Below, in pieces: positions 9,892 through 26,895 of a stretch of DNA of 36,169 nt. The translations under genes were made by a program, and so were the position numbers. Origin of the DNA: Alphaproteobacteria bacterium. GTDB lineage: Bacteria; Pseudomonadota; Alphaproteobacteria; UBA7887. Under the pieces are notes generated by a model, which was not told where the DNA came from, did not search any database, and saw only the letters and a list, made by a program, of their open reading frames with translations. Numbering within the stretch: position 1 is the first letter of the stretch; every line of letters starts with the position of its first letter. The stretch lies in contig JANQOH010000447.1 of assembly GCA_028289725.1 (NCBI GenBank), positions 1 to 36,169 of the forward strand, read 5' to 3'.

Positions 9892-11111
9892 CACTGAGCG
9901 CCGACGATATTCACGCGGCGCGCGCGCGCATCGCCGACGCCGTCGAGGTCACACCGTGCCGCGAGTCACGCACCTTATCGGCGATTACCGGCGCGACAAC
10001 CGTGCTTAAATTCGAGAATCAACAGTTCACCGCATCCTTCAAAGAGCGCGGGGCTCTGAACCGGTTGTTGCAGCTATCGGACGCCGAAAAGCAGCGCGGT
10101 GTCATCGCGATGTCGGCCGGCAATCACGCGCAAGGCGTGGCCTACCATGCACAGCGCTTGGGCATACCGGCAACCATCGTTATGCCCCGTGCAACGCCAT
10201 TCATAAAGATCGAACAAACCAGCCACTTTGGCCCCCGTGTGATGCTCGAAGGCGAAAGGCTTCGCGAATCCGAGGGTTTCGCCCGCGCCCTTGCGGACAA
10301 AGAGGGGCTCACCTTCCTCCATCCATACGACGACGAAGCCGTGATCGCAGGGCAAGGAACCATCGCACTCGAAATGCTGGAAGCGCGGCCGGACATTGAC
10401 ACCTTGGTCATCCCGATCGGCGGCGGCGGATTGATCGCCGGCAATGCGATCGCCGCCAAATCAATCAATCCCGACATCGACATTGTTGGGGTGCAAACTG
10501 AGCTTTATCCGGCGATGTATCAGGCCCTGCGCGGCGAAGAGCCCGTGTCCGGTGGTTCGACAATCGCTGAGGGCATCGCGGTCGGCAGACCCGGAACACT
10601 CACTTTGCCGATCGTGAAAGACCTTGTTGCCGAGGTGATGTTGGTTGGCGAGGGCAATATCGAACGCGCGGTTCTGATGCTGCTCGAAGTGGAAAAAACC
10701 GTGGTCGAAGGCGCCGGTGCCGCGGGCCTCGCCGCCGTGTTGCGGGCGTCCAAACGATTTGCAGGGCGCACCGTGGGCCTTATTTTGTGCGGCGGCAATA
10801 TCGACACGCGGCTGCTTTCGTCCATTGTCATGCGCGGCCTGGTGCGCGAGGGTCGGCTTGCCCGGGTGATGATCGAATTGTCGGACCTACCTGGAAGCCT
10901 GGCGCGGGTGGCTGAGATCATTGGCGACCAGGGCGCCAATATTGTCGAGGTGTCGCACGAACGCGCGTTTACCCACATGCCGGTGAAGTCAGCGGCCCTG
11001 ATTGTGGTCATGGAAACCCGTAATCGGGACCATGCTGCATCCGTTCTCGGTGTGCTCAACGACGCCGGGTTCCCGTCGACCGAAATCGAGCATCCGGATC
11101 CCGCCGAATAA
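9888..11111 (+). CDS. PLP-dependent threonine/serine ammonia-lyase with C-terminal ACT domain
   Basis: LKFENQQFTASFKERGA, SAGNHAQG, PIGGGGL, CGGNID, ACT motif DLPGSLA. ATG at 9888 overlaps the acylase stop (ATGA). Confidence 0.92.
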   Translation: MTLSADDIHAARARIADAVEVTPCRESRTLSAITGATTVLKFENQQFTASFKERGALNRLLQLSDAEKQRGVIAMSAGNHAQGVAYHAQRLGIPATIVMPRATPFIKIEQTSHFGPRVMLEGERLRESEGFARALADKEGLTFLHPYDDEAVIAGQGTIALEMLEARPDIDTLVIPIGGGGLIAGNAIAAKSINPDIDIVGVQTELYPAMYQALRGEEPVSGGSTIAEGIAVGRPGTLTLPIVKDLVAEVMLVGEGNIERAVLMLLEVEKTVVEGAGAAGLAAVLRASKRFAGRTVGLILCGGNIDTRLLSSIVMRGLVREGRLARVMIELSDLPGSLARVAEIIGDQGANIVEVSHERAFTHMPVKSAALIVVMETRNRDHAASVLGVLNDAGFPSTEIEHPDPAE

Positions 11112-11122
11112 ACGCTGGTCCG

Positions 11123-11551
11123 TCAGCCGGTCGTTTTTAGGTAGGCCAGTATCTTCCGGCGAATTTCGCTGTCAGGCTGGCTGTAATACATCCGGGATCG
11201 CGGCGCCATGGCCTGGGCATCGGTCAGGAAGGCGTCCAATACGTCCTCGGTCCAAACCACGCCCTCGGTCGCCGCCGCAAAGTTCGCCGAGTACAAAAAA
11301 TTGGGATCCGAACCCGCCGCCCGCCCGACAATCCCGATCAGCTTCGGTCCGTAGGTCGCCATCATGACCGGTATTAGGCGCGCTTCGGGATTCGATCTGG
11401 TTTGAAGCGGCAACTCCGCGGCGAAATGACACGGCGCGCATTCCGTCTCATAGAGCACGCGCCCCTCTTCGACATCGCCGGCAAATGTCGTGGTTGCGCC
11501 AGCAAGCGCGCCCGCCATCGCGAAACTCAACGTCAGCCAATGTAACCGCAT
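11123..11551 (-). CDS. class I c-type cytochrome (cytochrome c2-like) with signal peptide
   Basis: Signal peptide ending TFA, then GDVEEG; heme motif CAPCH; GPKLIGIVGRAAG; PRSRM matching PGTKM (axial Met). Confidence 0.85.
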   Translation of the reverse strand: MRLHWLTLSFAMAGALAGATTTFAGDVEEGRVLYETECAPCHFAAELPLQTRSNPEARLIPVMMATYGPKLIGIVGRAAGSDPNFLYSANFAAATEGVVWTEDVLDAFLTDAQAMAPRSRMYYSQPDSEIRRKILAYLKTTG

Positions 11552-11660
11552 TCCAGACTCCTGCGGTGCAACGCGGCCCCTCTGGCCGTGTCATCGCATG
11601 AGAGCATAGCCGTTATCGCAAGACCAGGTCACCACGGTCAGTGCTACGCTGAGCGTTCCG

Positions 11661-12452
11661 GTGAGCCAAACGAGGGAGCCGAGCGTGGGACGGTTAGATG
11701 GCAGAGTTGCATTAATCACCGGCGCCGCCGGGGGCATTGGCGCCGCCACGGCGCACCTGTTCGCTTCGGAAGGCGCCACGCTGTGTCTCGTCGACCGCGA
11801 CCAGGCGGGGTTGGACGCGTTGGCCCAAAAACTCAATGCGCCGCGGACGATCGTTCAAACCGCGGACGTCTCCGCGTCAGAAGACATGCATGCCTGCGTT
11901 GATGCGGCGATCAATGCCTTTGGCGGGTTGGATATCGCGATCCTCAATGCCGGCATTGAAGGCGAATTGCTGCCCATCGGCGCGTACCCCGAGGACGATT
12001 TCGATCGGGTCATCGCGATCAATTTGAAAGGTGTTTGGCTCGGATTGAGATACGCCATGCCCGCGCTCGAGACACGCGGCGGTGGCAGCATCGTGATCAC
12101 ATCGTCGATTGCCGGCGTCCGCGGGCGCGCGGGCATGTGGGGCTATGTCGCCAGCAAACACGGTGTGGTCGGTCTGATGCGCACAGCGGCGCTCGAGGGA
12201 GCAGCATCGGGCATCCGCGTCAACAGCGTGCACCCCTCGCCGGTCGAGACGCGGATGATGCGGTCCCTGGAAAGCAAGATGAACCCGGACGATCCGGAAG
12301 GCGCGTACCGCGCCTATCGCAAGCGGTCACCGCTCGGACGCTACGCGGAGCCGGAGGAAGTCGCCAAAATGATGTTGTTTCTGGCCAGTGACGACAGCTC
12401 CCACTGCACAGGTTCGACCTTCATGATCGATGGTGGCCGGGGCGCTGGTTAG
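11661..12452 (+). CDS. short-chain dehydrogenase/reductase
   Basis: TGAAGGIG, NAG, YVASK catalytic motif, IRVNSVHP, DGG C-terminus. Start could be the GTG at 11685. Confidence 0.92.
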   Translation: MSQTREPSVGRLDGRVALITGAAGGIGAATAHLFASEGATLCLVDRDQAGLDALAQKLNAPRTIVQTADVSASEDMHACVDAAINAFGGLDIAILNAGIEGELLPIGAYPEDDFDRVIAINLKGVWLGLRYAMPALETRGGGSIVITSSIAGVRGRAGMWGYVASKHGVVGLMRTAALEGAASGIRVNSVHPSPVETRMMRSLESKMNPDDPEGAYRAYRKRSPLGRYAEPEEVAKMMLFLASDDSSHCTGSTFMIDGGRGAG

Positions 12453-17402: not shown

Positions 17403-18164
17403 ATGCTCGACACCGATCCGCGAAAGCTTCAGTTCTTTTACGGCACCGCCGCACAACCCTGCCCCTATATCGAGGGGCGGTCGGAATGTAAGGCTGTGAC
17501 GGAACTAACCGGCCCACACGCCCCGCATCTGCACGATATGCTGAGCCGCGCGGGCTTTCGGCGCAGCCATGGCATTGCCTATCGGCCGGCCTGTCGCGGG
17601 TGCCACGCATGTGTACCGGTTCGCGTCGTGGTGGATCAGTTTCGTGCGTCACGATCCATGCGTCGCGTCCTGAAGCGGAATGCCGACCTGACGCCCCGTG
17701 AACGACCGGCCATCGCCACGCTCGAGCAATACGACCTGTTCGAAGCCTATGAAGTGTCGCGCCACGGCGACGGCGACATGGCCATGATGGACTTCACCGA
17801 CTATCGCGCCATGGTCGAGGACTCGCCCGTCGATACACGGATTGTCGAATTTCGTGACCCGGAGGGCCGGTTGGCGGCCGTCACGCTGACCGATTGGCTG
17901 AGCGACGGACTGTCGGGGGTGTACAAGTTCTTTGCCGTGGACCGTGCACGGGCGAGTCCTGGTACCCACGTCATTCTTTGGCACATCGAACAGGCCCGCG
18001 CGCTCGGGCTGCCTTATGTTTATCTCGGCTATTGGATCGGCGAGAGCCCAAAGATGGCTTACAAAATGCGGTTCCAGCCCTTGCATGCCTTGCGCGGTGA
18101 ACAATGGGTGCCCTTTACGAGGCCCGAAACCGATGCGGCGCCGGCGAACTTGGCCGCTGTTTAA
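17403..18164 (+). CDS. bpt: bacterial ATE1-like aminoacyl-tRNA-protein transferase (Bpt, N-degron pathway)
   Basis: CPYIEGR, GFRRSHGIAYRPAC..CHAC, RHGDGDM, LPYVYLGYWI...KMAYK.RF.P. Confidence 0.9.
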   Translation: MLDTDPRKLQFFYGTAAQPCPYIEGRSECKAVTELTGPHAPHLHDMLSRAGFRRSHGIAYRPACRGCHACVPVRVVVDQFRASRSMRRVLKRNADLTPRERPAIATLEQYDLFEAYEVSRHGDGDMAMMDFTDYRAMVEDSPVDTRIVEFRDPEGRLAAVTLTDWLSDGLSGVYKFFAVDRARASPGTHVILWHIEQARALGLPYVYLGYWIGESPKMAYKMRFQPLHALRGEQWVPFTRPETDAAPANLAAV

Positions 18165-18231
18165 TCAGACCTGACCCAAGCCTATACTGAGCCCGCCAGG
18201 CGGCGCGGCCGCCGCGACGTGGGAGGGCTTG

Positions 18232-19383
18232 ATGAAACGTCGGGATTTCTTGACAGGCGCCGTGACCGGCGCGGTTGTTGCCGCCGGGGCAACTTACGCC
18301 GCAACGTCCAATCGTGCGCCGGCACCTATTGAACCGGGCACGCCTGATGATCCGGGCACGGCACCGGCCGTGTCCTCCGGCTTGCGCGAATGGAAAATGG
18401 TCACAACCTGGCCGAAGAACTTTCCGGGCGCGGGAACCGCGGCGCAGGAGCTAGCCGACAATATCACGGCCATGTCCGAAGGCCGGTTGGTGGTCAAATT
18501 GTTCGCCGCCGGCGAGGTGGTACCCGCGTTTGAATCTTTCGATGCCGTGCGGGAGGGCACCGCGGAATGTGCGCACGCGGCGCCGTATTATTGGGTCGCG
18601 AAGAACAAGAGCATTCCCTTTTTCTGCGCCGTCCCAGGTGGTTTGAGCGTGATCGAACACAATGCCTGGATCATGTATGGCGGTGGCCAAGAGCTGTGGG
18701 ACGAAATGTACGGCGAGTTTGGCGTGCGCGGTTTCTTGTCCGGCAACACCGGCACCCAGATGGGCGGCTGGTTTCAGCGCGAAATCAACTCACTCGACGA
18801 CTTCAAAGGTCTTAAAATCCGCATTCCAGGCTTGGCGGCCGAGGTGCTCAATCGGCTCGGCGCGACCGCGGTCAATATGCCGGCCGGTGAAATTATGCCG
18901 GCGCTGCAATCCGGCGTCATTGACGCGGCCGAGTGGGTCGGTCCTTGGGTCGATCTGACCATGGGCTTTTACAAAGTCGCCAAGAACTATTATGGCCCCG
19001 GCTTCCACGAAGGCAGTACGGCCAACGAACTCCTGGTCAACGAGCAAACGTGGCAGTCGCTGCCGAGCGACCTCCAAGCGATCGTTCGCACGGCCTGCCA
19101 TGAAGCCAACATGAAAGTCCCCGCGGAATATTTCGCCCGTAGCTCCGACGCACTGGCCACGCTGGTCAATGAACATGGCGTAACGCTCAAGACTTTCCCG
19201 GACGAGGTCTACGCGGAAGCCTATCGCATCTCTGAGGAGGTCAATGCGGAGACCGCGAACGAGGGCGATCTCAACCGACGAATCTATGAAAGTTGGAGCA
19301 AGTTCCGCAAACACGCCATGGACTATCAGCCCCTGTCCGATTTCGGATTTATCCAGAACCGGCGGCGCGCCATCGCGTCTTAG
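18232..19383 (+). CDS. dctP: TRAP substrate-binding protein, TakP/2-oxo-acid type, paralogue 1 (Tat signal)
   Basis: KRRDFL twin-arginine motif, WKMVTTWPKNFPG, GNTGTQMGGWF, RIPG, EWVGP. GGGAGG RBS. Confidence 0.92.
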   Translation: MKRRDFLTGAVTGAVVAAGATYAATSNRAPAPIEPGTPDDPGTAPAVSSGLREWKMVTTWPKNFPGAGTAAQELADNITAMSEGRLVVKLFAAGEVVPAFESFDAVREGTAECAHAAPYYWVAKNKSIPFFCAVPGGLSVIEHNAWIMYGGGQELWDEMYGEFGVRGFLSGNTGTQMGGWFQREINSLDDFKGLKIRIPGLAAEVLNRLGATAVNMPAGEIMPALQSGVIDAAEWVGPWVDLTMGFYKVAKNYYGPGFHEGSTANELLVNEQTWQSLPSDLQAIVRTACHEANMKVPAEYFARSSDALATLVNEHGVTLKTFPDEVYAEAYRISEEVNAETANEGDLNRRIYESWSKFRKHAMDYQPLSDFGFIQNRRRAIAS

Positions 19384-19419: not shown

Positions 19420-20502
19420 GTGAAGACTCGCAAGCTCACCCGCCGCAATATCCTCGCGGCCGGCGGCGTCGCCGCCGCATCGACCTTGGCCGCGCCCGCG
19501 ATTGCGCAGAATCGGCTGAGTTGGAAAATGATCACGGCTTGGCCCAAGAATTTTCCGGGCCTGGGCACCGGTGCGCAACGCATCGCCGACGCCATCACCG
19601 AAATGTCCGAAGGCCAGCTCTCCATCAAGCTCTATGCTGCCGGCGAACTTGTTCCGCCGCTGGAGGTGTTCGACGCCGTCGCCCAAGGCACCGCCGAGAT
19701 GGGCCATTCAGCGCCGGCTTATTGGACCGGCAAGAACAAGAGCTTCGCATTTTTTGCGGTCGTGCCGGGCGGCTTAGTCGCGCAAGAACAGAATGCCTGG
19801 GTGGCCTATGGCGGCGGCCAGGAGCTCTGGGACGAAACCTATGGCGAATACGGTCTAAAGGCCTGGCCCGCTGGCAATACCGGCACCCAAATGGGCGGAT
19901 GGTTTAACAAAGAGATCAACAGCCCCGACGACTTGAACGGGTTGCGGATGCGCATTCCCGGCTTGGCGGGCGAGGTGATCAACCGTGCGGGCGGCTTGGC
20001 GGTCAACATTCCCGGCGGCGAAATCATGACCAGCATGCAGTCGGGCGTGGTCGACGCCGTGGAATTCGCGGGACCTTGGACCGACCTCGCCTTCGGCTTC
20101 CACAAAGTCGCGAAATACTATTACGGCCCTGGTTTTCAGGAGCCGGGCCCGAGTCTGGAGTTGATCATCAATCGCCGGCTTTGGGATGAGTTGCCGCGGC
20201 ACTTGCAGAAAATCGTCGAACACGCGTCCGCGTCCGAGAACCAGCGCATGTTGTCGGAGTTCACGGCGGGCAACGCGGCGTCGCTCGAAGTGCTGGTGCG
20301 CGACCACGGCATAACACCGCAAAAGATGCCCGATGACGTAATTCGGAAATTAAGAGCGATTAGCGAGGAGGTCCTCGAGGAGACGGCCGAGCTCGGCGAC
20401 TTAAACCGCCGCATCTATGAGAGCTGGTCCAAATTCCGCGCCCAAGCGGCGGCACTGGCGCCATTTACCGAGCAAGGCGCCCTCAACCAGCGTGACCTGT
20501 AA
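19420..20502 (+). CDS. dctP: TRAP substrate-binding protein, TakP type, paralogue 2 (Tat signal)
   Basis: TRRNIL...APAIA signal, WKMITAWPKNFPG, GNTGTQMGGWF, RIPG, EFAGP. GTG start. Confidence 0.92.
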   Translation: MKTRKLTRRNILAAGGVAAASTLAAPAIAQNRLSWKMITAWPKNFPGLGTGAQRIADAITEMSEGQLSIKLYAAGELVPPLEVFDAVAQGTAEMGHSAPAYWTGKNKSFAFFAVVPGGLVAQEQNAWVAYGGGQELWDETYGEYGLKAWPAGNTGTQMGGWFNKEINSPDDLNGLRMRIPGLAGEVINRAGGLAVNIPGGEIMTSMQSGVVDAVEFAGPWTDLAFGFHKVAKYYYGPGFQEPGPSLELIINRRLWDELPRHLQKIVEHASASENQRMLSEFTAGNAASLEVLVRDHGITPQKMPDDVIRKLRAISEEVLEETAELGDLNRRIYESWSKFRAQAAALAPFTEQGALNQRDL

Positions 20503-20594
20503 CGCATCGGCTGTTAGCTTTTTCGAGATTGAAAATTTCACAACCCGTCGTCCCAGCTCACGACGGGTCATCAAGTCATGGAAGTGAGAAAGAT

Positions 20595-21692
20595 ATGACC
20601 CGTAAATCCCCGTCCCGCCGTGGTTTCCTCAAGGGCGCGGCCGTCGGTGCCGTCGCTGCATCATCGCTGCCCGCGCCAGCAATCGCGCAAGGCAATGTGC
20701 AATGGAAGATGGTCACGACATGGCCGAAGAATTTTCCAGGACTTGGCACCGGCGCCCAACGAATCGCCGATCGCATTGACGCGCTGACCGACGGACGATT
20801 GAAGGTAAAACTGTTCGCGGCTGGCGAGTTGGTCCCCGCGTTCGAGGCGTTCGACGCGGTGCGCGATGGCATCGCGGAAATGACGCACGACGCCGCTTAT
20901 TATTGGGTAGCCAAGCACAAAAGCATGCCGTTCTTCTGCACGGTTCCGGGCGGCCTGACCCAACAGGAGCACATGGGATGGATCTACCATGGCGGCGGTC
21001 AAGCGCTCTGGGACGAACTTTATGCTGAGTTTGGATTGAAGGCGTTTCTTGCTGGTGGCACCGGTGTTCAGATGGGCGGCTGGTTCCAAAAGGAGATCAA
21101 CAGCCTCGACGACCTTCAAGGACTGAAAATGCGCATCCCGGGCCTCGGCGCGGAAGTCATCAACCGATTGGGCGGCACCGCCGTCAATATGCCAGGCGGC
21201 GAAATCATGCCGGCATTGCAGTCCGGCGTGATCGACGCGACCGAATGGGTCGGCCCTTGGAACGATCTCGCCTTCGGTTTCTACAAGATCGCCAAATACT
21301 ATTACGGCCCAGGCTTCCACGAGCCGAGTTCGGCTCTCGAAGTCATGGTGTCGAAGGACAAGTTCGAGGAGCTGCCGAGCGACTTGCAGGCGGCTGTCGA
21401 AAACGCGTGCATGGCCGAAAACGGATATATGCTGAGCGAGTTCACGGCCGGCAATAGCGCCGCACAAGCAACCCTGACCGGTGAACATGGCGTTTCGATC
21501 GGCAGTTTCCCCGACGATGTGGTGAAAGCCGCCTACGGCGCCGCGGTGGATGTCCTGCACGAAACCGCAGACGTCGACGATCTGGGCAAACGCATCTTCG
21601 ACAGTTGGTGGAAGTTCCGACAGGAAGCGATCGACCGCGCCCCATTCGCCGAACAGGGCTACATGAACAATCGCGGTCTTGCTAACGCTTAG
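20595..21692 (+). CDS. dctP: TRAP substrate-binding protein, TakP type, paralogue 3 (Tat signal)
   Basis: ATG at 20595, SRRGFL...APAIA signal, WKMVTTWPKNFPG, QMGGWF, RIPG, EWVGPWND, HEP. Confidence 0.92.
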   Translation: MTRKSPSRRGFLKGAAVGAVAASSLPAPAIAQGNVQWKMVTTWPKNFPGLGTGAQRIADRIDALTDGRLKVKLFAAGELVPAFEAFDAVRDGIAEMTHDAAYYWVAKHKSMPFFCTVPGGLTQQEHMGWIYHGGGQALWDELYAEFGLKAFLAGGTGVQMGGWFQKEINSLDDLQGLKMRIPGLGAEVINRLGGTAVNMPGGEIMPALQSGVIDATEWVGPWNDLAFGFYKIAKYYYGPGFHEPSSALEVMVSKDKFEELPSDLQAAVENACMAENGYMLSEFTAGNSAAQATLTGEHGVSIGSFPDDVVKAAYGAAVDVLHETADVDDLGKRIFDSWWKFRQEAIDRAPFAEQGYMNNRGLANA

Positions 21693-21862
21693 GCGCCTGC
21701 AACCAGAAAGGGAAAGCGCCAACGCCCTATTGCCAGACGCCCAACTTCCGATAAATGGAGTCTGGCGTAAGGTTGACGCAGACCCCTCGATCCCGGCTTC
21801 GATGACTGGATGGCCACGGCAGTGGTCGGGGTTCACGCGGCCAAAATGGATAACACCGGGGC

Positions 21863-22651
21863 ATGGCTGTGCTGATCCAAAGCGTTTCCAAGACCCACCT
21901 TGTCCTTGGCGACAAGGCGCTTGCCGCGCTTGAAGCAAAACCGACCGAAAGTGTCGAAGGCCGCGTCGGCGGACGCACGTTTCAGGCAAGAGTAGCCATT
22001 CCCCACTATGCAGAGAATGTTGCGCGACACTATGCCGACCTTGCACTCGCCGGATTAGAACAGATATGCAACGCTACCGAGGTTGCCCGGCCATTTCGCG
22101 ACTTTGGTTTGTTCTGTACTTTCGACGCTGCGACTGAACTACAGGTTCACGATTCCGACCTAAACCTGGATGAGAACATCCGAACGCTCATTCAGCGCTT
22201 CGGGCCGGTCGTGATCACGAATGCGTATTTGCCCGAACGTGATCGCAAAGCCGACCAAACAAACATATTTCCGCACTTGCAATTTCATTTCGATCGCGGA
22301 CGCAATCAGCCGACCCAGACATCGCTGTTCTATCGTGATCCTTTTGACCCTGTTCAGGCTGCGCCACGCGAGTCATCGACCGTTCACTGCGCAAACATCG
22401 TCGCCCACTTGCAACATGCCAAGGAAACCGGCCAGGCCGCTGAAAGCCTGGCATGGCGCGGCTTCTACAACATATTTGAGGACGAAGACCTAGATAGCCT
22501 TATCGGCAATATATTATTCGAACACCGCTGGGACGGGCCCCAAGGTACGGGCGAGATCGCGGTTTTGTTCAATGGGACCGTCTTGCACGCAAGTTACTAT
22601 CGACGCACAGCGTTGAGGGGATACCCAATCAGTGTGCGCTATCTCAGGTAG
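21863..22651 (+). CDS. hypothetical protein, probable divergent TauD/TfdA-like Fe(II)/2-oxoglutarate oxygenase
   Basis: 262 aa with protein-like composition. Ordered motifs FGPVVITN, FH142-F-D144, SST173V, HRW....GEIAVLFNGTVLH242A, C-terminal Arg. The CDS is fairly secure; the family call is motif-based inference. Confidence 0.65.
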   Translation: MAVLIQSVSKTHLVLGDKALAALEAKPTESVEGRVGGRTFQARVAIPHYAENVARHYADLALAGLEQICNATEVARPFRDFGLFCTFDAATELQVHDSDLNLDENIRTLIQRFGPVVITNAYLPERDRKADQTNIFPHLQFHFDRGRNQPTQTSLFYRDPFDPVQAAPRESSTVHCANIVAHLQHAKETGQAAESLAWRGFYNIFEDEDLDSLIGNILFEHRWDGPQGTGEIAVLFNGTVLHASYYRRTALRGYPISVRYLR

Positions 22652-22770
22652 AACGAAGCCGTTGGCCAGGTTGGCAGACTCGCCGAAATTCCCGGAAATC
22701 CTAGATTCTAAGCGTGGAATTGGTTCCGGAGAGCCGTGCCACCTCGTGCATAGAATTGGGTTACCGAAAT

Positions 22771-23382
22771 ATGCGTCTCTTTAGACGGCCATCGACTCCC
22801 GCCATAACGAACACTGCCCGAACGGAGGCGCGGACTGTCGTCGCGAGCAAAAATGACACCGGTCGCGTGTGCGGCGCACATTGCACCGTAAAGTGTCAGA
22901 AATGTGGATCGGTGGCGTGCCGTTGCGAGTGCACGCCTGACTGCGAACTAGCGTCGCGTGCGCTATCCAGCGAGCCTGACGCGTTTCCGGTTGAGCACCA
23001 TATCGTGCCGTTAGTATACGAACTGAAACGTCTCCGCTCATTCACACCATGTTGGTCGTGCGAAGGCCACAACGACAACACCGGCAAGCTGCACCGAGTA
23101 CCCAGCGTTTGGTTCTATTGCGAGTCCGTCGTTCAGGCGCGCCTTTTGTCAGAAGGCATCGAAAAACTGGCAATCCAAAAACGACTCAACGCGGGTTGGC
23201 ACGTGGTGATCGCCGTCGCCGAACCGGACAATCCGGATACCCTCTACAAGCTGGAACCGGCGATTGAGGTGGGTCGTGACATTAGTCTCGATCAATTGCG
23301 TGCCGACGTTCGAACGATCGCGGACAACTTAAACCACCATGTTCTTGACGCCGCGACAGCGCTGGCCGGACAGCCGGCCTGA
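22771..23382 (+). CDS. hypothetical protein with N-terminal 8-Cys cluster and TYW3/Taw3-like SCxGH motif
   Basis: Cx3Cx3Cx2Cx4CxCxCx3C at 22870-22944, then E..IVPLV..L.....TPCWSCEGH. Stop lies 4 bp from the dctM stop. Start 22771 (ATG) or 22714 (GTG). Confidence 0.6.
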   Translation: MRLFRRPSTPAITNTARTEARTVVASKNDTGRVCGAHCTVKCQKCGSVACRCECTPDCELASRALSSEPDAFPVEHHIVPLVYELKRLRSFTPCWSCEGHNDNTGKLHRVPSVWFYCESVVQARLLSEGIEKLAIQKRLNAGWHVVIAVAEPDNPDTLYKLEPAIEVGRDISLDQLRADVRTIADNLNHHVLDAATALAGQPA

Positions 23383-23386
23383 CCCG

Positions 23387-24778
23387 CTAACCGTAGAACA
23401 CTTTGGGGAGCCAGGTCGCCATTTCGGGAATGGCGGCAATGATGACCAGCATCAAGAGTTGCAACACGACGAACGGTGCGACGCCGCGATAGATGTCGGT
23501 TGTCTTGACGCTGTCGGGCGCCACGCCGCGCAAATAGAACAGCGCGAAACCGAACGGCGGCGTCAGATACGACGCCTGGATGTTGACGGCGATCATGATC
23601 GCGAACCAGACCGGACTGATCCCCTCATACATCAAAATCGCGGGCCCGACGATTGGCACCACGACGAAGACGATTTCAATGAAGTCGAGGAAGAAGCCGA
23701 GGACGAACATCAGCACCATGGTGAGCAACATGGCGCCGAAAACACCGCCCGGCAGATTTAGCAGGAACTCCGCAACGATTTCATCGCCCTCAAAACCGCG
23801 GAACACAAGGCTGAACAATTGCGCGCCAATCAGGATCACGAACACCATGGCCGAGACCTTGGCGGTCGAGCGCATGACGTCGATCAGATTTTCGCGCGTC
23901 AACTGCTTGCGGAACGCGGCGAGGACTAAGGCGCCCATGGCACCGACGCCAGCGGCTTCGGTCGGTGTCGCCAAACCAACCAAGATCGAGCCAAGGACCA
24001 GCACGATCAGCAACAGGGGAGGCAATAAGACCTTCAGCACGCGTCCTGTCATTTCGGCGGGTGGAATGGCCGCGCGCTCCTCCGCGGGAACCGAGGGCAT
24101 GCGTTCCGGGTAGATCGTCGCATAGATGAATTGCCAAAGAATGTAGAGCCCAACCAAGGCGAAACCCGGAATCAGCGCACCAACGAACAAATCAGCGACG
24201 CTGACCGGTTCGGGCGCGAAGTTCCCCGCCGCGAGTTGCGCTTGCTGATAGGCCGCTGAAATCTGGTCGCCAAGCAAGATCAGCACGATTGAAGGCGGAA
24301 TGATCTGGCCCAACGTGCCAGCGGCGCAAATCGATCCGCAGGAGATTGGCGCGGCGTATCCGCGCTTGAGCATGGTCGGGAGCGACAGCAGCCCCATTGT
24401 CACCACCGTCGCCCCGACAATACCTGTCGACGCGGCGAGCAAAGCACCGACAACGCTAACCGCAATGCCGAGGCCGCCGCGCACGCCACTCAAAACAAGC
24501 GCCATGGTGTCGAGCAGCGCCTCGGCGAGCTTCGAACGTTCGAGCATGACGCCCATGAACACGAACAACGGCACGGCGATCAGAAGATCGTTGGTCATGA
24601 TGCCGTAGATCCGGTTCGGCAGCGCCTGGACGAACACCATGTCGAAGACGCCGAACGACGCGCCCAGGAATGCAAAGAGCAACGCCACACCGGATAAGGT
24701 ATAGGCAACCGGAAAACCGAGTAGCAGCGCCCCACACAAAGTGAGGATCATCGCGATGATGTAGAGTTCGTAGGTCAC
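23387..24778 (-). CDS. dctM: TRAP transporter large permease
   Basis: AVPLFVFMG, ASTGIVGA, GTLGQIIPPS, ATPTEAA, LTPPFGFALFYL. GTG start with GGAGG. Confidence 0.95.
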   Translation of the reverse strand: MTYELYIIAMILTLCGALLLGFPVAYTLSGVALLFAFLGASFGVFDMVFVQALPNRIYGIMTNDLLIAVPLFVFMGVMLERSKLAEALLDTMALVLSGVRGGLGIAVSVVGALLAASTGIVGATVVTMGLLSLPTMLKRGYAAPISCGSICAAGTLGQIIPPSIVLILLGDQISAAYQQAQLAAGNFAPEPVSVADLFVGALIPGFALVGLYILWQFIYATIYPERMPSVPAEERAAIPPAEMTGRVLKVLLPPLLLIVLVLGSILVGLATPTEAAGVGAMGALVLAAFRKQLTRENLIDVMRSTAKVSAMVFVILIGAQLFSLVFRGFEGDEIVAEFLLNLPGGVFGAMLLTMVLMFVLGFFLDFIEIVFVVVPIVGPAILMYEGISPVWFAIMIAVNIQASYLTPPFGFALFYLRGVAPDSVKTTDIYRGVAPFVVLQLLMLVIIAAIPEMATWLPKVFYG

Positions 24779-24793
24779 GCCGCCCCTCCCCGG

Positions 24794-25336
24794 CTAAAGC
24801 GCGTGCTCGTGCTCTTCCGGCGGTTTGTGTTCGATACCGCGGAGGGTTGCGACGGAATGAATAATCAGCGAAATGCCCTGCAGAATCATCGTGCCCGCAA
24901 AGATCCAGATGCAGGTCTTGAGGATGTAGACAAAGTGCAGTCCGCGTTCCTCCAACGAACCTTCGAGCTGCTGCCAACTATTCAGCACATAGTCGAGCGA
25001 GAAATAGATGATGACCGCGCTGACCGGAATCAGGAACGCGATTGTCCCGAAGATATCGACCCACGCCTTCGCCCGTTCGCCCATCTTCAGATAGAAGACA
25101 TCGACCCGAACATGTTCGTTGTGGAGCAACGTATAGGCGGCGCAGAGCAGGAACACGAATGAGTGCATGAAGCGCACCGATTCCTGCATCCAAATGAAGC
25201 CGATGTTAAAGCCGTAGCGCAGCACGACGATGACCACCGTCACGACGACCATCACCAAAGTGAACCACGAAATCGCGCGGCCCAGCCGGTCGTTGAAGGC
25301 GTCAATGACGCGCGCCAACCCGAGCAGAAAAGTCAT
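24794..25336 (-). CDS. dctQ: TRAP transporter small permease
   Basis: Four hydrophobic segments, VVLRYGF, QES, EHVRVDVFY. Directly upstream of dctM. Confidence 0.93.
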   Translation of the reverse strand: MTFLLGLARVIDAFNDRLGRAISWFTLVMVVVTVVIVVLRYGFNIGFIWMQESVRFMHSFVFLLCAAYTLLHNEHVRVDVFYLKMGERAKAWVDIFGTIAFLIPVSAVIIYFSLDYVLNSWQQLEGSLEERGLHFVYILKTCIWIFAGTMILQGISLIIHSVATLRGIEHKPPEEHEHAL

Positions 25337-25541
25337 TGCTTAAGGGCCATCCGCAGAATCCCCCGCATCCCTTAACCACCACCGGCGTGCCCACCGGCTA
25401 TGTCCCCCTGAGCCCCGCCTCGCCTCAACCGTGCCATTATTCGGTCAGGTTGAAGTGAACGGCGCTCGCCGCCGAAGTTAGAGAATTCCCAAGCCAAGAC
25501 CAAGCGTTTCCCGCCGGGCACATCGAATTGCCGGCTCCAAT

Positions 25542-25682
25542 ACAAAAAAATTTCGCTCAAAGAACGATTTTTTTGTCGGGCGCCCACAGTCCACTTGGGC
25601 GCATAACTATTTGATATCACGTGATTTTTTGCTCCACTCACGCGACGATGTGAACAAGATTCTTTGACGTTGTGAAAAAGAT
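25542..25682. promoter_or_regulatory. AT-rich control region with inverted, palindromic and direct repeats
   Basis: ACAAAAAAAT (25542-25551) / ATTTTTTTGT (25567-25576); ATCACGTGAT (25616-25625); TGTGAACAAGAT (25649) and TGTGAAAAAGAT (25671), 22 bp apart. Confidence 0.5.
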
Positions 25683-25727
25683 CATCGGGCCTCGGTGAGA
25701 CCCTTCACAGCCCCGTGACCGCGGCCC

Positions 25728-25743
25728 TGGCATAACCGTTTCA
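25728..25743 (+). promoter_or_regulatory. possible sigma54 (-24/-12) promoter, imperfect
   Basis: TGGCATAACCGTTTCA versus consensus TGGCAC-N5-TTGCW. Spacing is right but it has TTTC instead of TTGC. Confidence 0.3.
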
Positions 25744-25802
25744 GCAGACAGACACCAAGGCGGCACAGAGGACGCGCCGCCGACAGAACCGAAAGAGACG
25801 AG

Positions 25803-25895
25803 ATGTTTCACCAGGTCAACACCAGCAAAACCCGGCGCTCTGTATGCCGACGCAGGGTGCGCCCAAGCCGCAAGGAGGGCCTCGTAGAATTATAG
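25803..25895 (+). CDS. candidate 30-aa Arg-rich small protein or leader peptide
   Basis: ATG...TAG, MFHQVNTSKTRRSVCRRRVRPSRKEGLVEL, preceded by purine-rich GAAAGAGACGAG. Too short for the ORF track. Confidence 0.3.
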   Translation: MFHQVNTSKTRRSVCRRRVRPSRKEGLVEL

Positions 25896-25899
25896 GTTT

Positions 25900-26077
25900 C
25901 GCCGGCGAATCCGCCGGACACGGAACTTCGTTGGGGCCGAACGGACTCCCCGCTCGCGCGGTCACTAACGAAGTCGATGCGATCTCCGGTCCGCAGCATC
26001 CCCAGCACCTGCACACCGCGAGCCGGGATCGTCCGCCGCCCCTCCGTCTTCCCAGCGGGGGGGCGGCACGTTTTCTC
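25900..26077 (+). ncRNA. candidate structured small RNA with CU-rich anti-SD loops (5' end uncertain)
   Basis: About 15-bp hairpin 25925-25974, GATGC/GCATC stem 25976-26000, three UCCC motifs, ending in a terminator. No convincing long ORF here. Confidence 0.45.
26035..26077 (+). terminator. intrinsic terminator
   Basis: GCCGCCCCTCCG / CGGGGGGGCGGC 12-bp stem (one G-U), 9-nt loop, followed by ACGTTTTCTC. Confidence 0.7.
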
Positions 26078-26175
26078 AAAAGCAGATTTCTGCTCAATTT
26101 CAGCGCAATGGATAGTTTTCACGCCTCAGACGTTTAGGTATAGTCGCGGCTTCGGACAGCCATGAGCAGAGGCCT

Positions 26176-26895
26176 ATGAGCCAAAGCGTCGACGCCGCCC
26201 TCAAGACTTTATGCAGCGATCCCACCTGTTGTCGGGAGCGCCTTCTCCACACCGCCGGAATTATTTACGCGGAACGCGGCTATGACGCGGCCTCGACGCG
26301 CGAGCTGACCAAGGCCGCCGGGGTCAATCTGGCAGCAATTGCCTATTATTTCGGCGGCAAAGATGGACTGCAGGCCGCCGTTATTGATCACGTGGTGGAA
26401 GAATGCCGCGAGCGCACCTGGGCGGTTTTTGAGCATTTGGACCGATCGATCGACGAAGCCCACGGTGACAAGGAGGCGCTGGCCACCGCTACGGCTTTGT
26501 TCGCCGAATCATTTCTCCGCGCCGCGCTGCCCGTGAACCGGGAAACCTGGTGGGTGACGATTCTGACGCGGGCCATGGGCAGTTTGCCCGAGCCAGAGGC
26601 GCCGCTGTATGAAACGGTCTTCTTGCCCGCACACAAAATACTGCGCCGCTTGGTGACCGCGGCGACTGGTGAGACCGACCCTGATCGCCAGGGAATCGTC
26701 ACCGAAGCGCTGGTCGGTGATTTCCTGACCTTTTGCAAGAACTATTCGGTCGTTCTTCGAAGCCTCGGGTGGGACGACTTCAGCGATCCCCATATCGACC
26801 AAATTGTCGCGGTTGTCGCCCGTCGGATGCAGGCGCGTCTCGGCCTGCCGCAGATACCGCTCGCAGAGCGGTCGGCGAAGCTCGCCGCCGAATAG
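26176..26895 (+). CDS. TetR-family transcriptional regulator, CecR/CerR-like C-terminal domain
   Basis: HTH RERLLHTAGIIYAERGYDAASTRELTKAAGVNLAAIAYYFGGKDGL. C-terminal domain ending LRSLGWDDF resembles the CecR type. Confidence 0.88.
   Translation: MSQSVDAALKTLCSDPTCCRERLLHTAGIIYAERGYDAASTRELTKAAGVNLAAIAYYFGGKDGLQAAVIDHVVEECRERTWAVFEHLDRSIDEAHGDKEALATATALFAESFLRAALPVNRETWWVTILTRAMGSLPEPEAPLYETVFLPAHKILRRLVTAATGETDPDRQGIVTEALVGDFLTFCKNYSVVLRSLGWDDFSDPHIDQIVAVVARRMQARLGLPQIPLAERSAKLAAE

Follow-up and report, generated by a model that had tools for sequence, protein, structure and literature searches.

Two adjacent genes, termed here ORF1 and ORF2, form a real, mobile pair with scattered recurrences among marine-type bacteria. 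They were studied in the 36,169-nt contig JANQOH010000447.1 (assembly GCA_028289725.1, positions 1-36,169), referred to below as the window, whose source genome (84% complete) is labelled G000. There the pair occupies a 1.7-kb cassette that is an insertion in this genome, and its products are predicted to be a divergent Fe(II)/2-oxoglutarate oxygenase (ORF1) and, probably, a distant relative of the TYW3/Taw3 enzymes (ORF2). A previous interpretation made from the DNA letters of the window (the sequence-only reading) had noted two co-oriented open reading frames (ORFs) between the genes dctP3 and dctM, and both were present in the ORF list at 21863-22651 and 22714-23382:

21863..22651, plus strand: ORF1, 262 aa, divergent TauD/CarC-clan Fe(II)/2-oxoglutarate oxygenase (predicted; from the ORF list, homologues and model)
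22714/22771..23382, plus strand: ORF2, open from a GTG at 22714 (222 aa), with a likelier ATG start at 22771 that gives 203 aa (from the ORF list and alignment)

Linkage, distribution and insertion of the pair

The distribution of the two families was determined in a genome census with profile thresholds of E <= 1e-10 for ORF1 and E <= 1e-5 for ORF2. In an even sample of the class (401 genomes), ORF1 was found in 10 genomes and ORF2 in 18, and nine genomes belonging to eight families held both; about 0.45 joint holders would be expected by chance under independent placement, a value to be read with the non-independence of related genomes in mind. In a sample of the phylum (401 genomes), two further ORF1 holders were found, both with ORF2 adjacent. 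Altogether, ORF2 was present in 11 of the 12 ORF1-holding genomes and adjacent in 10 of them. Examination of 14 loci, corresponding to these 12 genomes and two metagenome contigs, revealed that the two genes are adjacent in 11, in three arrangements:

ORF1 then ORF2: the window, G401 and G282 (the last two from one genus); 3 loci
ORF2 then ORF1, abutting or overlapping in several: G408, G303, G260, G263, G103, G784 and L005; 7 loci
Divergent: G766; 1 locus

Neighbours were scanned for 11 loci (74 of the 117 ORFs called there) and around solitary ORF2 genes (31 ORFs), with 6 further ORFs, and those scanned were unrelated from locus to locus. The co-occurrence of the pair in unrelated contexts, for which the sequence-only reading had proposed a search, was thus observed. 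A search with an eight-row ORF1 alignment (the window protein plus 7 of 69 clusters) recovered three genome loci, on contigs of G103, G260 and G263, and two metagenome loci. Both genes are under purifying selection in the congeneric loci L018 and L020: proportions of nonsynonymous (pN) and synonymous (pS) differences were 0.179 and 0.724 for ORF1, with a dN/dS of 0.08, and 0.136 and 0.792 for ORF2, whose pS is saturated.

Solitary ORF2 genes were found in nine genomes, three of them doubtful: the gene of G284 contains two stops, the match in G372 is partial, and the contig of G386 ends 129 bp past the gene. The distribution of ORF1 is nested within that of ORF2 and therefore points to ORF2 as the core component and to ORF1 as a dependent add-on. 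Three loci speak against such dependence. In G308 the two genes are on different contigs, and an intact ORF1 with no ORF2 was found in G121 (92% complete), as was an ORF1 with no ORF2 in the 8.3-kb metagenome contig L006; ORF1 may therefore work alone. No ORF1 fusions were found among proteins of 460-2000 aa, which is weak evidence, and no ORF1-like part was present in the 150 listed of 308 ORF2 representatives, among which a few long ones had low-complexity tails. Prediction of an ORF1-ORF2 complex gave a score of 0.00 in two runs made without controls, which is evidence neither way.

Several observations were made around the homologous loci. At a UbiD-UbiA slot in one family, G121 (L016, G121:C23, 8190-11693) carries the intact ORF1 homologue alone, and G284 (L039, G284:C2, 1-3026) carries the ORF2 homologue alone, interrupted by a TGA and a TAG codon; the picture resembles differential loss from a pair once present at this site. 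Near the pair or near solitary ORF2 genes, several gene families recur (L018, L020, L022, L006, L019, L021 and L038): glutathione S-transferases, flavin reductases, glyoxalase-fold proteins, DsbA/thioredoxin-like proteins and the CMD (carboxymuconolactone decarboxylase) family. These families are common in general, and L018 and L020 belong to one genus. A TctA/TctB gene is located about 2 kb off in L021, and L018 is the only locus with a phage-integrase fragment, about 2 kb from the pair.

In the window, ORF1 and ORF2 lie co-oriented in the gap between convergent dctP3 and dctM, with the dctM stop 4 bases from the ORF2 end. The surrounding features, which correspond to a tripartite ATP-independent periplasmic (TRAP) transporter, are the following:

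18229-19383, 19420-20502 and 20529-21692, plus strand: three DctP genes in tandem (ORF list)
21681..21862, no strand: left insertion edge, non-coding, upstream of ORF1, without counterpart in relatives (blastn)
23387-24778, minus strand: DctM (ORF list)
24794-25336, minus strand: DctQ (ORF list)

Five relatives were searched by DNA, and the dctP-dctM arrangement is kept in the syntenic loci. In blastn comparisons with the loci of G001, G003, G006 and G007, homology ends at about 21673-21680 and starts again at 23388-23391. For G004, the fifth of them, no gap was measurable, its dctP and dctM matches being on separate contigs. The dctP-dctM gaps in the other four relatives were:

G001 (same genus): 370 bp, no genes
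G007: 129 bp, no genes
G006: 46 bp, no genes
G003: 1313 bp, with a Phd/YefM antitoxin, a ParE toxin and an unknown 206-aa ORF

The gap of G003 (L049, G003:C28 ~10715-12028) is syntenic to window positions 21681-23387, and its toxin-antitoxin genes were identified with E-values of 2.1e-11 (Phd/YefM) and 1.7e-15 (ParE). Because the gaps of G001, G006 and G007 carry no genes while that of G003 carries a toxin-antitoxin pair, the dctP-dctM gap is a variable insertion slot in this bacterial family. The ORF1 family was absent from all 40 nearest relatives searched, and no flanking repeats were found around the cassette as an insertion scar.

The composition of the two genes also deviates from that of the window. 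ORF1 has a GC content of 0.545 and a GC content at third codon positions (GC3) of 0.593, the corresponding values for ORF2 being 0.580 and 0.632; the other 28 window genes have a mean GC3 of 0.718 (sd 0.033, minimum 0.654). The low GC that the sequence-only reading had estimated from a small hand count was therefore borne out, since ORF1 and ORF2 have the lowest two GC3 values among the 30 genes, and the deviant GC3 together with the insertion relative to close relatives agrees with its view of an acquired module.

It has to be noted that a position within a transporter locus can mislead about function when the slot is a variable insertion site. The alternative reading, in which the pair would act on an organic acid brought in by the TRAP transporter around it, has its sole positional support in the placement between dctP3 and dctM, and an arginine-rich ORF1 pocket would suit such an anionic substrate. 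On the other hand, relatives have the TRAP locus but no cassette: in G001, G006 and G007 dctP and dctM are just 46-370 bp apart, and in G003 the toxin-antitoxin pair occupies that place. Moreover, no DctP, DctQ or DctM gene was found beside any of the 13 other ORF1 loci. These data largely refute a link with the transporter, which we consider very improbable.

Predicted folds and conserved residues of the two proteins

Neither ORF1 nor ORF2 was assigned to a family by Pfam, NCBIfam or PADLOC at E <= 0.05, and PHROGs gave nothing for ORF1. The absence of a standard annotation reported earlier was thus maintained, no characterised operon or family being matched. The homologues of ORF1 form 70 clusters, all of them unnamed or 'hypothetical', three of which have a precomputed PF02668 assignment. 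An alignment of the window protein with 26 of the 69 other clusters, hand-picked for spread (27 rows), revealed seven invariant residues: H142, D144, H242, R259, R145, R158 and R169. The first three make up the HxD...H triad already described in the sequence-only reading (H142-F-D144 ... H242). R259 is located 17 residues past H242, and we take its candidate role as a 2-oxoglutarate ligand from the usual position of the Arg in TauD-type enzymes rather than from a residue-level superposition. The corresponding codons are:

22286..22294, plus strand: ORF1 codons H142-F-D144, HxD of the predicted iron triad (invariant, n=27; model strand 140-142)
22586..22588, plus strand: ORF1 codon H242, distal triad His, in LHASYY (invariant, n=27; model strand 240-246)
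22637..22639, plus strand: ORF1 codon R259, candidate ligand of the 2-oxoglutarate C5-carboxylate (invariant; last model strand 256-261)

The AlphaFold2 (AF2) model of ORF1 (mean predicted local distance difference test, pLDDT, 93.2; predicted TM-score, pTM, 0.91) has the double-stranded beta-helix of TauD-type enzymes, in agreement with the TauD-like assignment made earlier. Foldseek retrieved 73 PDB chains at E <= 0.001 (best E 2.2e-5) with low global TM-scores (0.33-0.40), and the best 27 of the 73 were all TauD, AtsK, PvcB, IsnB or related putative dioxygenases. In the VIA structural comparison the highest Z-scores corresponded to CarC (9.9; root-mean-square deviation, rmsd, 4.4 over 172 aligned residues), PvcB (9.6), PlaO1 (9.3), AtsK (9.2) and TauD (9.0); 127 of 998 chains reached Z >= 8, with values of 8-9.9 over about 155-180 aligned residues. 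The Pfam TauD profile matched 10 of the 27 aligned family members at E <= 1 (best 2.4e-6), and TauD clusters appeared in the ESM Atlas search at ranks 12 and 17, with scores of 0.91 and 0.90. Two results weigh against this assignment: the ORF1 of the window itself had no Pfam TauD match at E <= 1 (below gathering threshold), and a profile search of PDB sequences with the ORF1 alignment found no TauD chain at E <= 10. On the basis of the model, ORF1 is a predicted far-diverged member of the TauD clan with its iron site intact, and it is not of the JmjC type. It resembles the TauD/TfdA clan (TauD, AtsK, CarC, PvcB/IsnB/ScoE) in its double-stranded beta-helix over residues ~17-262, the HxD...H arrangement and, as a candidate counterpart, the C-terminal Arg, and differs from it in that its identity to any solved member is 10-17%. 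The invariant arginines R145, R158 and R169 suggest, at the level of sequence, an anionic substrate. To our knowledge, no characterised member of the TauD clan has a genomic partner like ORF2.

The ORF2 family is larger. A HMMER search over 1.84 billion representative proteins found 308 relatives at E <= 0.001, mostly of 190-220 aa among the 150 listed, and conservation was calculated for the window protein plus 110 relatives of 185-250 aa from these 150 (n=111). The eight clustered cysteines and the SCEGH motif of the sequence-only reading are both present. In the numbering of the 203-aa form, the cysteines are C34, C38, C42, C45, C50, C52, C54 and C58; conservation is 95-98% for C34, C38, C54 and C58 and about 70% for C42, C50 and C52. 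The number of cysteines ahead of the motif ranges from four to eleven per family member, most often eight or nine. SCEGH (residues 96-100) is invariant in an alignment of 19 sequences, and in the larger set W95-S96-C97-E98-G99-H100 is 94-99% conserved, E75 96%, P111 and W143 100% and D179 95%. In the AF2 model (pLDDT 81.7, pTM 0.81), a helix at residues 10-28 is followed by a Cys-rich stretch lacking regular secondary structure (pLDDT ~70), and an alpha/beta domain starts near residue 63. As judged from the sequence pattern, the Cys cluster most likely chelates a metal, as Zn or Fe-S. The ORF2 features are:

22870..22944, plus strand: residues 34-58, eight Cys (CX3CX3CX2CX4CXCXCX3C), predicted metal site or sites (conservation, n=111)
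22957..23349, plus strand: residues 63-193, TYW3/Taw3-like alpha/beta domain (wide structure search)
22993..22995, plus strand: codon E75, candidate counterpart of the invariant Asp of TYW3 (96% conserved, spacing)
23047..23070, plus strand: residues 93-100, PCWSCEGH, family signature motif (alignments)

The hallmarks of TYW3 enzymes given in PMC5311493 and PMC2034487 are the fold, the motif (S/T)xSSCxGR or [ST]xSCxGR, an invariant Asp in an N-terminal extension and an invariant His. The fold consists of this extension and a RAGNYA domain with an SHS2-like insert, the invariant Asp is the contact of the S-adenosylmethionine (SAM) sulfonium, and the Asp, Cys and Arg are essential in yeast TYW3 (PMC5311493 and PMC2034487). 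The equivalent residues of Sulfolobus solfataricus Taw3 are Asp25, Ser47, Cys48, Gly50, Arg51 and His73 (PMC5311493).

A wide structure search of 48,161 chains, independent of Foldseek, placed the four TYW3/Taw3 entries at ranks 1-4 for ORF2: 2drv (Z 8.6, rmsd 3.7, 116 aligned residues), 2qg3 (Z 7.9, rmsd 4.0, 118 aligned), 2dvk (Z 7.7, rmsd 4.0, 107 aligned) and 1tlj (Z 7.6, rmsd 3.2, 110 aligned). Rank 5 had a Z of 5.8, which leaves a gap below the Taw3 entries. The Foldseek matches of ORF2 were weak, none of them at E <= 0.001 (best E 8.5e-3), and were led by PH1069, SSO0622, APE0816 and AF_2059, which are Taw3/TYW3 structures; YbjN-type proteins appeared in the same list with E 0.04-0.14, and none was in the best 50 of the wide search. 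In the ESM Atlas a TYW3 cluster was found only at rank 22 (score 0.84). Residues 63-188 of the ORF2 model align with 14-192 of the 1tlj chain, with the motifs in register within one residue, and the distance from acid to Cys is 22 residues in ORF2 (E75-C97) vs 23 in Taw3 (Asp25-Cys48). PCWSCEGH keeps the Ser, Cys and Gly of the TYW3 motif at the right spacing; the S/T position is Pro in ORF2, or Cys by the shorter form of the motif.

A number of observations weigh against a close relationship. The Z range of 7.6-8.6 is 'middling' for the search tool, and E75 and C97 were provisionally equated with Asp25 and Cys48 on the basis of spacing and aligned ranges, not of a residue-level superposition. 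The TYW3 motif is kept in part, its Arg being replaced by His and its first Ser by Trp, and no conserved His was found in ORF2 residues 101-143, where Taw3 has His73 (~25 residues past the Cys); the conserved residues in this stretch are P111, V113, W114, F115 and Y116, plus R124 in the 19-sequence alignment. The TYW3 profile PF02676 found nothing in the whole genome at E <= 10, while control genomes responded; ORF2 itself had no PF02676 match at E <= 1, and 96 family members scanned singly matched no Pfam family at a meaningful score, PF02676 included. Profile searches of PDB sequences with the ORF2 family gave no Taw3 chain at E <= 10. Furthermore, the family is neutral to mildly acidic (median isoelectric point, pI, 6.3; net charge of the C-domain -2) and is therefore a poor fit to a large basic tRNA-binding patch like that of Taw3. 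Of the TYW3-like assignment proposed earlier, then, the fold and part of the motif stand, and the Pfam match, the Arg and the family His do not.

The signature of TYW1 (PF08608, Wyosine_form) was absent from G000 at E <= 0.01 in the 84% of the genome available, and three archaeal controls were positive; a wyosine-type substrate is therefore unlikely. Altogether, the data indicate that ORF2 is probably a distant relative within the TYW3 superfamily, outside the TYW3 family proper, that acts on something besides wyosine. A cytidine-deaminase reading of the 'PCxxC' motif was rejected, as there is no H/CxE upstream (P73-x-E75 is found instead) and no deaminase fold among the structure matches.

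Relatives of the ORF2 domain were also found in jumbo phages. PHROG 11112, of function unknown, was matched by 16 of 19 ORF2 family members at E <= 0.1 (best 2.9e-4) in the stretch from E75 to P111. Foldseek searches of predicted viral structures (BFVD) with ORF2 retrieved small uncharacterised jumbo-phage proteins, among them protein 356 of PhiPA3 (E 9.9e-5) and proteins of Vibrio VP4B, several Erwinia vB_EamM phages, RaK2, 201phi2-1 and Bacillus phage G. Comparison of a 96-row ORF2 alignment with PhiPA3 gene 356 by hhalign gave a probability of 91.7 and E 7.6e-7, with the phage '...IDP...CCEGH' paired with '...VEH...SCEGH' of ORF2. These phage proteins share the core of the ORF2 domain, D/E ... 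(S/C)CEGH included; they differ from ORF2 in being ~140-165 aa long and in having no Cys cluster. PhiPA3 gene 356 is annotated as 'similar to gp290 of phiKZ' and has no oxygenase annotated beside it, and a literature search turned up no functional account of phiKZ gp290. The gene (L053, HQ630627, 27374-27868) is located ~1.8 kb from tRNA-Thr and tRNA-Cys genes, with further tRNA genes in the region, and its protein neighbours are all hypothetical.

Candidate functions of the pair

The reading that we prefer, and hold tentatively, is that the pair is a self-contained, horizontally moved two-enzyme modification module unconnected to the TRAP transporter. ORF2 would be the core enzyme, with an N-terminal helix, a metal cluster of four to eight Cys and the TYW3/Taw3-fold domain. 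A pocket with E75 and the S96-C97-x-G99-H100 turn would bind a nucleotide-like cofactor or substrate, most likely SAM, and C97 may act as an essential nucleophile or relay in group transfer, as proposed for TYW3. ORF1 would be an active Fe(II)/2-oxoglutarate oxygenase using H142, D144, H242 and R259, and would add an optional oxidative step, such as hydroxylation or oxidative removal of the transferred group, directed either at what ORF2 produces or at a target that both enzymes would share. This step is regarded as optional because ORF1 occurs almost only with ORF2, while ORF2 also occurs alone; such step logic would resemble that of TYW5 after TYW3 in some eukaryotes. Candidate substrates would be a nucleotide, a nucleic-acid base or a small anionic metabolite, with a wyosine derivative unlikely. 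The neutral charge of the ORF2 family argues against a tRNA-type basic surface and so would leave a nucleotide, a small anionic metabolite or a protein. It weighs against this scheme that its chemistry is a proposal from sequence and models, not from experiment.

A different relation between the two proteins would be that of enzyme and target. ORF2 could be the protein substrate of ORF1, hydroxylated perhaps within its Cys-rich loop or close to it, or else its metal or redox chaperone, so that the two would form a closed protein-modification or sensing unit (for example for oxygen, iron or 2-oxoglutarate). The phyletic nesting suits a dependent enzyme as well as it suits a pathway, the abutting or overlapping genes of the ORF2-then-ORF1 form suggest coupled synthesis, the Cys cluster is conserved, and the neutral pI does not suggest nucleic-acid binding. 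However, the best structural relatives of ORF1 are small-molecule enzymes of the TauD clan and not protein hydroxylases, the residues that ORF2 conserves (E75, SCEGH, W143, D179) form a pocket-like set, as is typical of enzymes, and its jumbo-phage relatives keep CEGH without the Cys cluster, with no annotated oxygenase nearby in PhiPA3; the lack of a fused form among the proteins searched points weakly in the same direction. We regard this substrate or chaperone role of ORF2 as rather unlikely.

The phage relatives also bear on a possible role in conflict, as an anti-phage defence or counter-defence: together with an oxygenase, an enzyme modifying nucleic-acid bases or nucleotides would change a signalling nucleotide or the nucleic acid of the phage or the host. 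In favour of this reading are the patchy spread of the pair (ORF1 in 10/401 and 3/401 genomes, and in 0/40 near relatives), its deviant composition, its variable slot with Phd/YefM-ParE in the relative G003, and an ORF2 core domain common to proteins of many jumbo phages. On the contrary, PADLOC-DB 2.0 (2023) gave 0 families for either protein at E <= 1, no match was found by tblastn against plasmids and phages, and pattern searches or tblastn found no ORF2 relatives in viral contigs or in phage and plasmid records; the surroundings of most loci are housekeeping genes, with neither integrases nor other defence genes, and ORF2 is often solitary. A conflict role thus appears quite unlikely.

A bolder proposal can be made, to which we attach a low likelihood: TYW3-fold (class IX) enzymes, so far known only from archaea and eukaryotes, would have in ORF2 and the related jumbo-phage proteins their first branch in bacteria and viruses, in which the Cys of the (S/C)CEGH turn, together with the metal cluster in bacteria, would place a group on a base or nucleotide that the TauD-like partner would then hydroxylate or remove. 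If true, such a branch would represent an undescribed modification of RNA, DNA or nucleotides, possibly serving phage-host conflict or translational control.

Compared with known systems, ORF2 is nearest to TYW3/Taw3 (tRNA-wybutosine (yW) N4-methyltransferase, class IX; PDB 1tlj, 2drv, 2qg3, 2dvk), whose fold matches its residues 63-193; both have in their N-terminal part an acidic residue (in ORF2 the candidate counterpart E75) followed, 21-22 residues on in ORF2, by S-C-x-G-(basic), a size of ~200 aa and a tie to a double-stranded beta-helix oxygenase, TYW5 in the case of TYW3 in some eukaryotes. ORF2 differs in being bacterial, in its added N-terminal cluster of four to eight Cys, in not being basic and in having no sequence-profile match. 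The parallel with wybutosine synthesis drawn by the sequence-only reading holds as far as an oxygenase stands beside a TYW3-fold protein. TYW5 is likewise an Fe/2-oxoglutarate oxygenase that is an optional add-on in part of the lineages of its partner; it belongs, however, to the JmjC superfamily and ORF1 to the predicted TauD clan, which makes this an analogy and not homology. The hydroxylase of yW is fused to TYW3 and TYW2 in chlorophyte algae (PMC2938197). AMMECR1 offers a second comparison, since it combines the RAGNYA fold, a conserved catalytic Cys, a persistent link with a dioxygenase and a predicted base modification (PMC2034487), and differs in having another variant of the fold, a ring-opening dioxygenase family and an extra radical-SAM partner. 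AMMECR1 was absent from the fold-search matches for ORF2.

In PMC5311493 and PMC2938197, enzymes with the TYW3 fold are presented as specific to archaea and eukaryotes and as tied to wybutosine; their chemistry, above all the part played by the conserved Cys, is described there as not yet settled. No description of the pair or of a bacterial TYW3-like family was found in the literature searched; the supplements of PMC2034487 and PMC2938197, which lay outside this search, might mention bacterial relatives. Judging from these libraries and literature, the ORF2 family, its tie to a TauD-clan oxygenase and its jumbo-phage link are new. Both folds are already known, and the undescribed pairing of the families is a good lead, not a solved system. 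It adds a bacterial family of ~300 sequence clusters that keeps the Cys-Gly core of the TYW3 site together with a metal-type Cys cluster, and it offers a tractable two-gene system for the uses of the TYW3 fold outside wybutosine, the target of the oxygenase and the role of the phage proteins, with a real chance of new chemistry.

Gene calls and flanking features

The ATG at 22771 is considered the likelier start of ORF2 because its homologues begin with MRIxRR, which aligns to that internal ATG. The public product for ORF2 has 125 aa (P0071) and no Cys cluster, and those of its three closest relatives (P0072, P0073 and P0077) have 125-144 aa; more distant homologues have 194-223 aa, Cys cluster included. 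The short public calls probably result from the choice of a wrong start.

No sigma-70-like promoter was detected upstream of ORF1, three terminator-like sites on the minus strand were at the level of shuffled sequence, and an Rfam scan of 21000-26300 gave no match. The three DctP paralogues all carry an N-terminal twin-arginine-like motif (RRDFL, RRNIL and RRGFL), so that three candidate binding proteins are present vs one DctQ/DctM membrane unit on the opposite strand, and a multi-copy DctP layout was also seen in relatives. Just upstream of the TRAP genes, positions 17403-18164 correspond to a gene with the ATE_N and ATE_C domains of arginine-tRNA-protein transferases.

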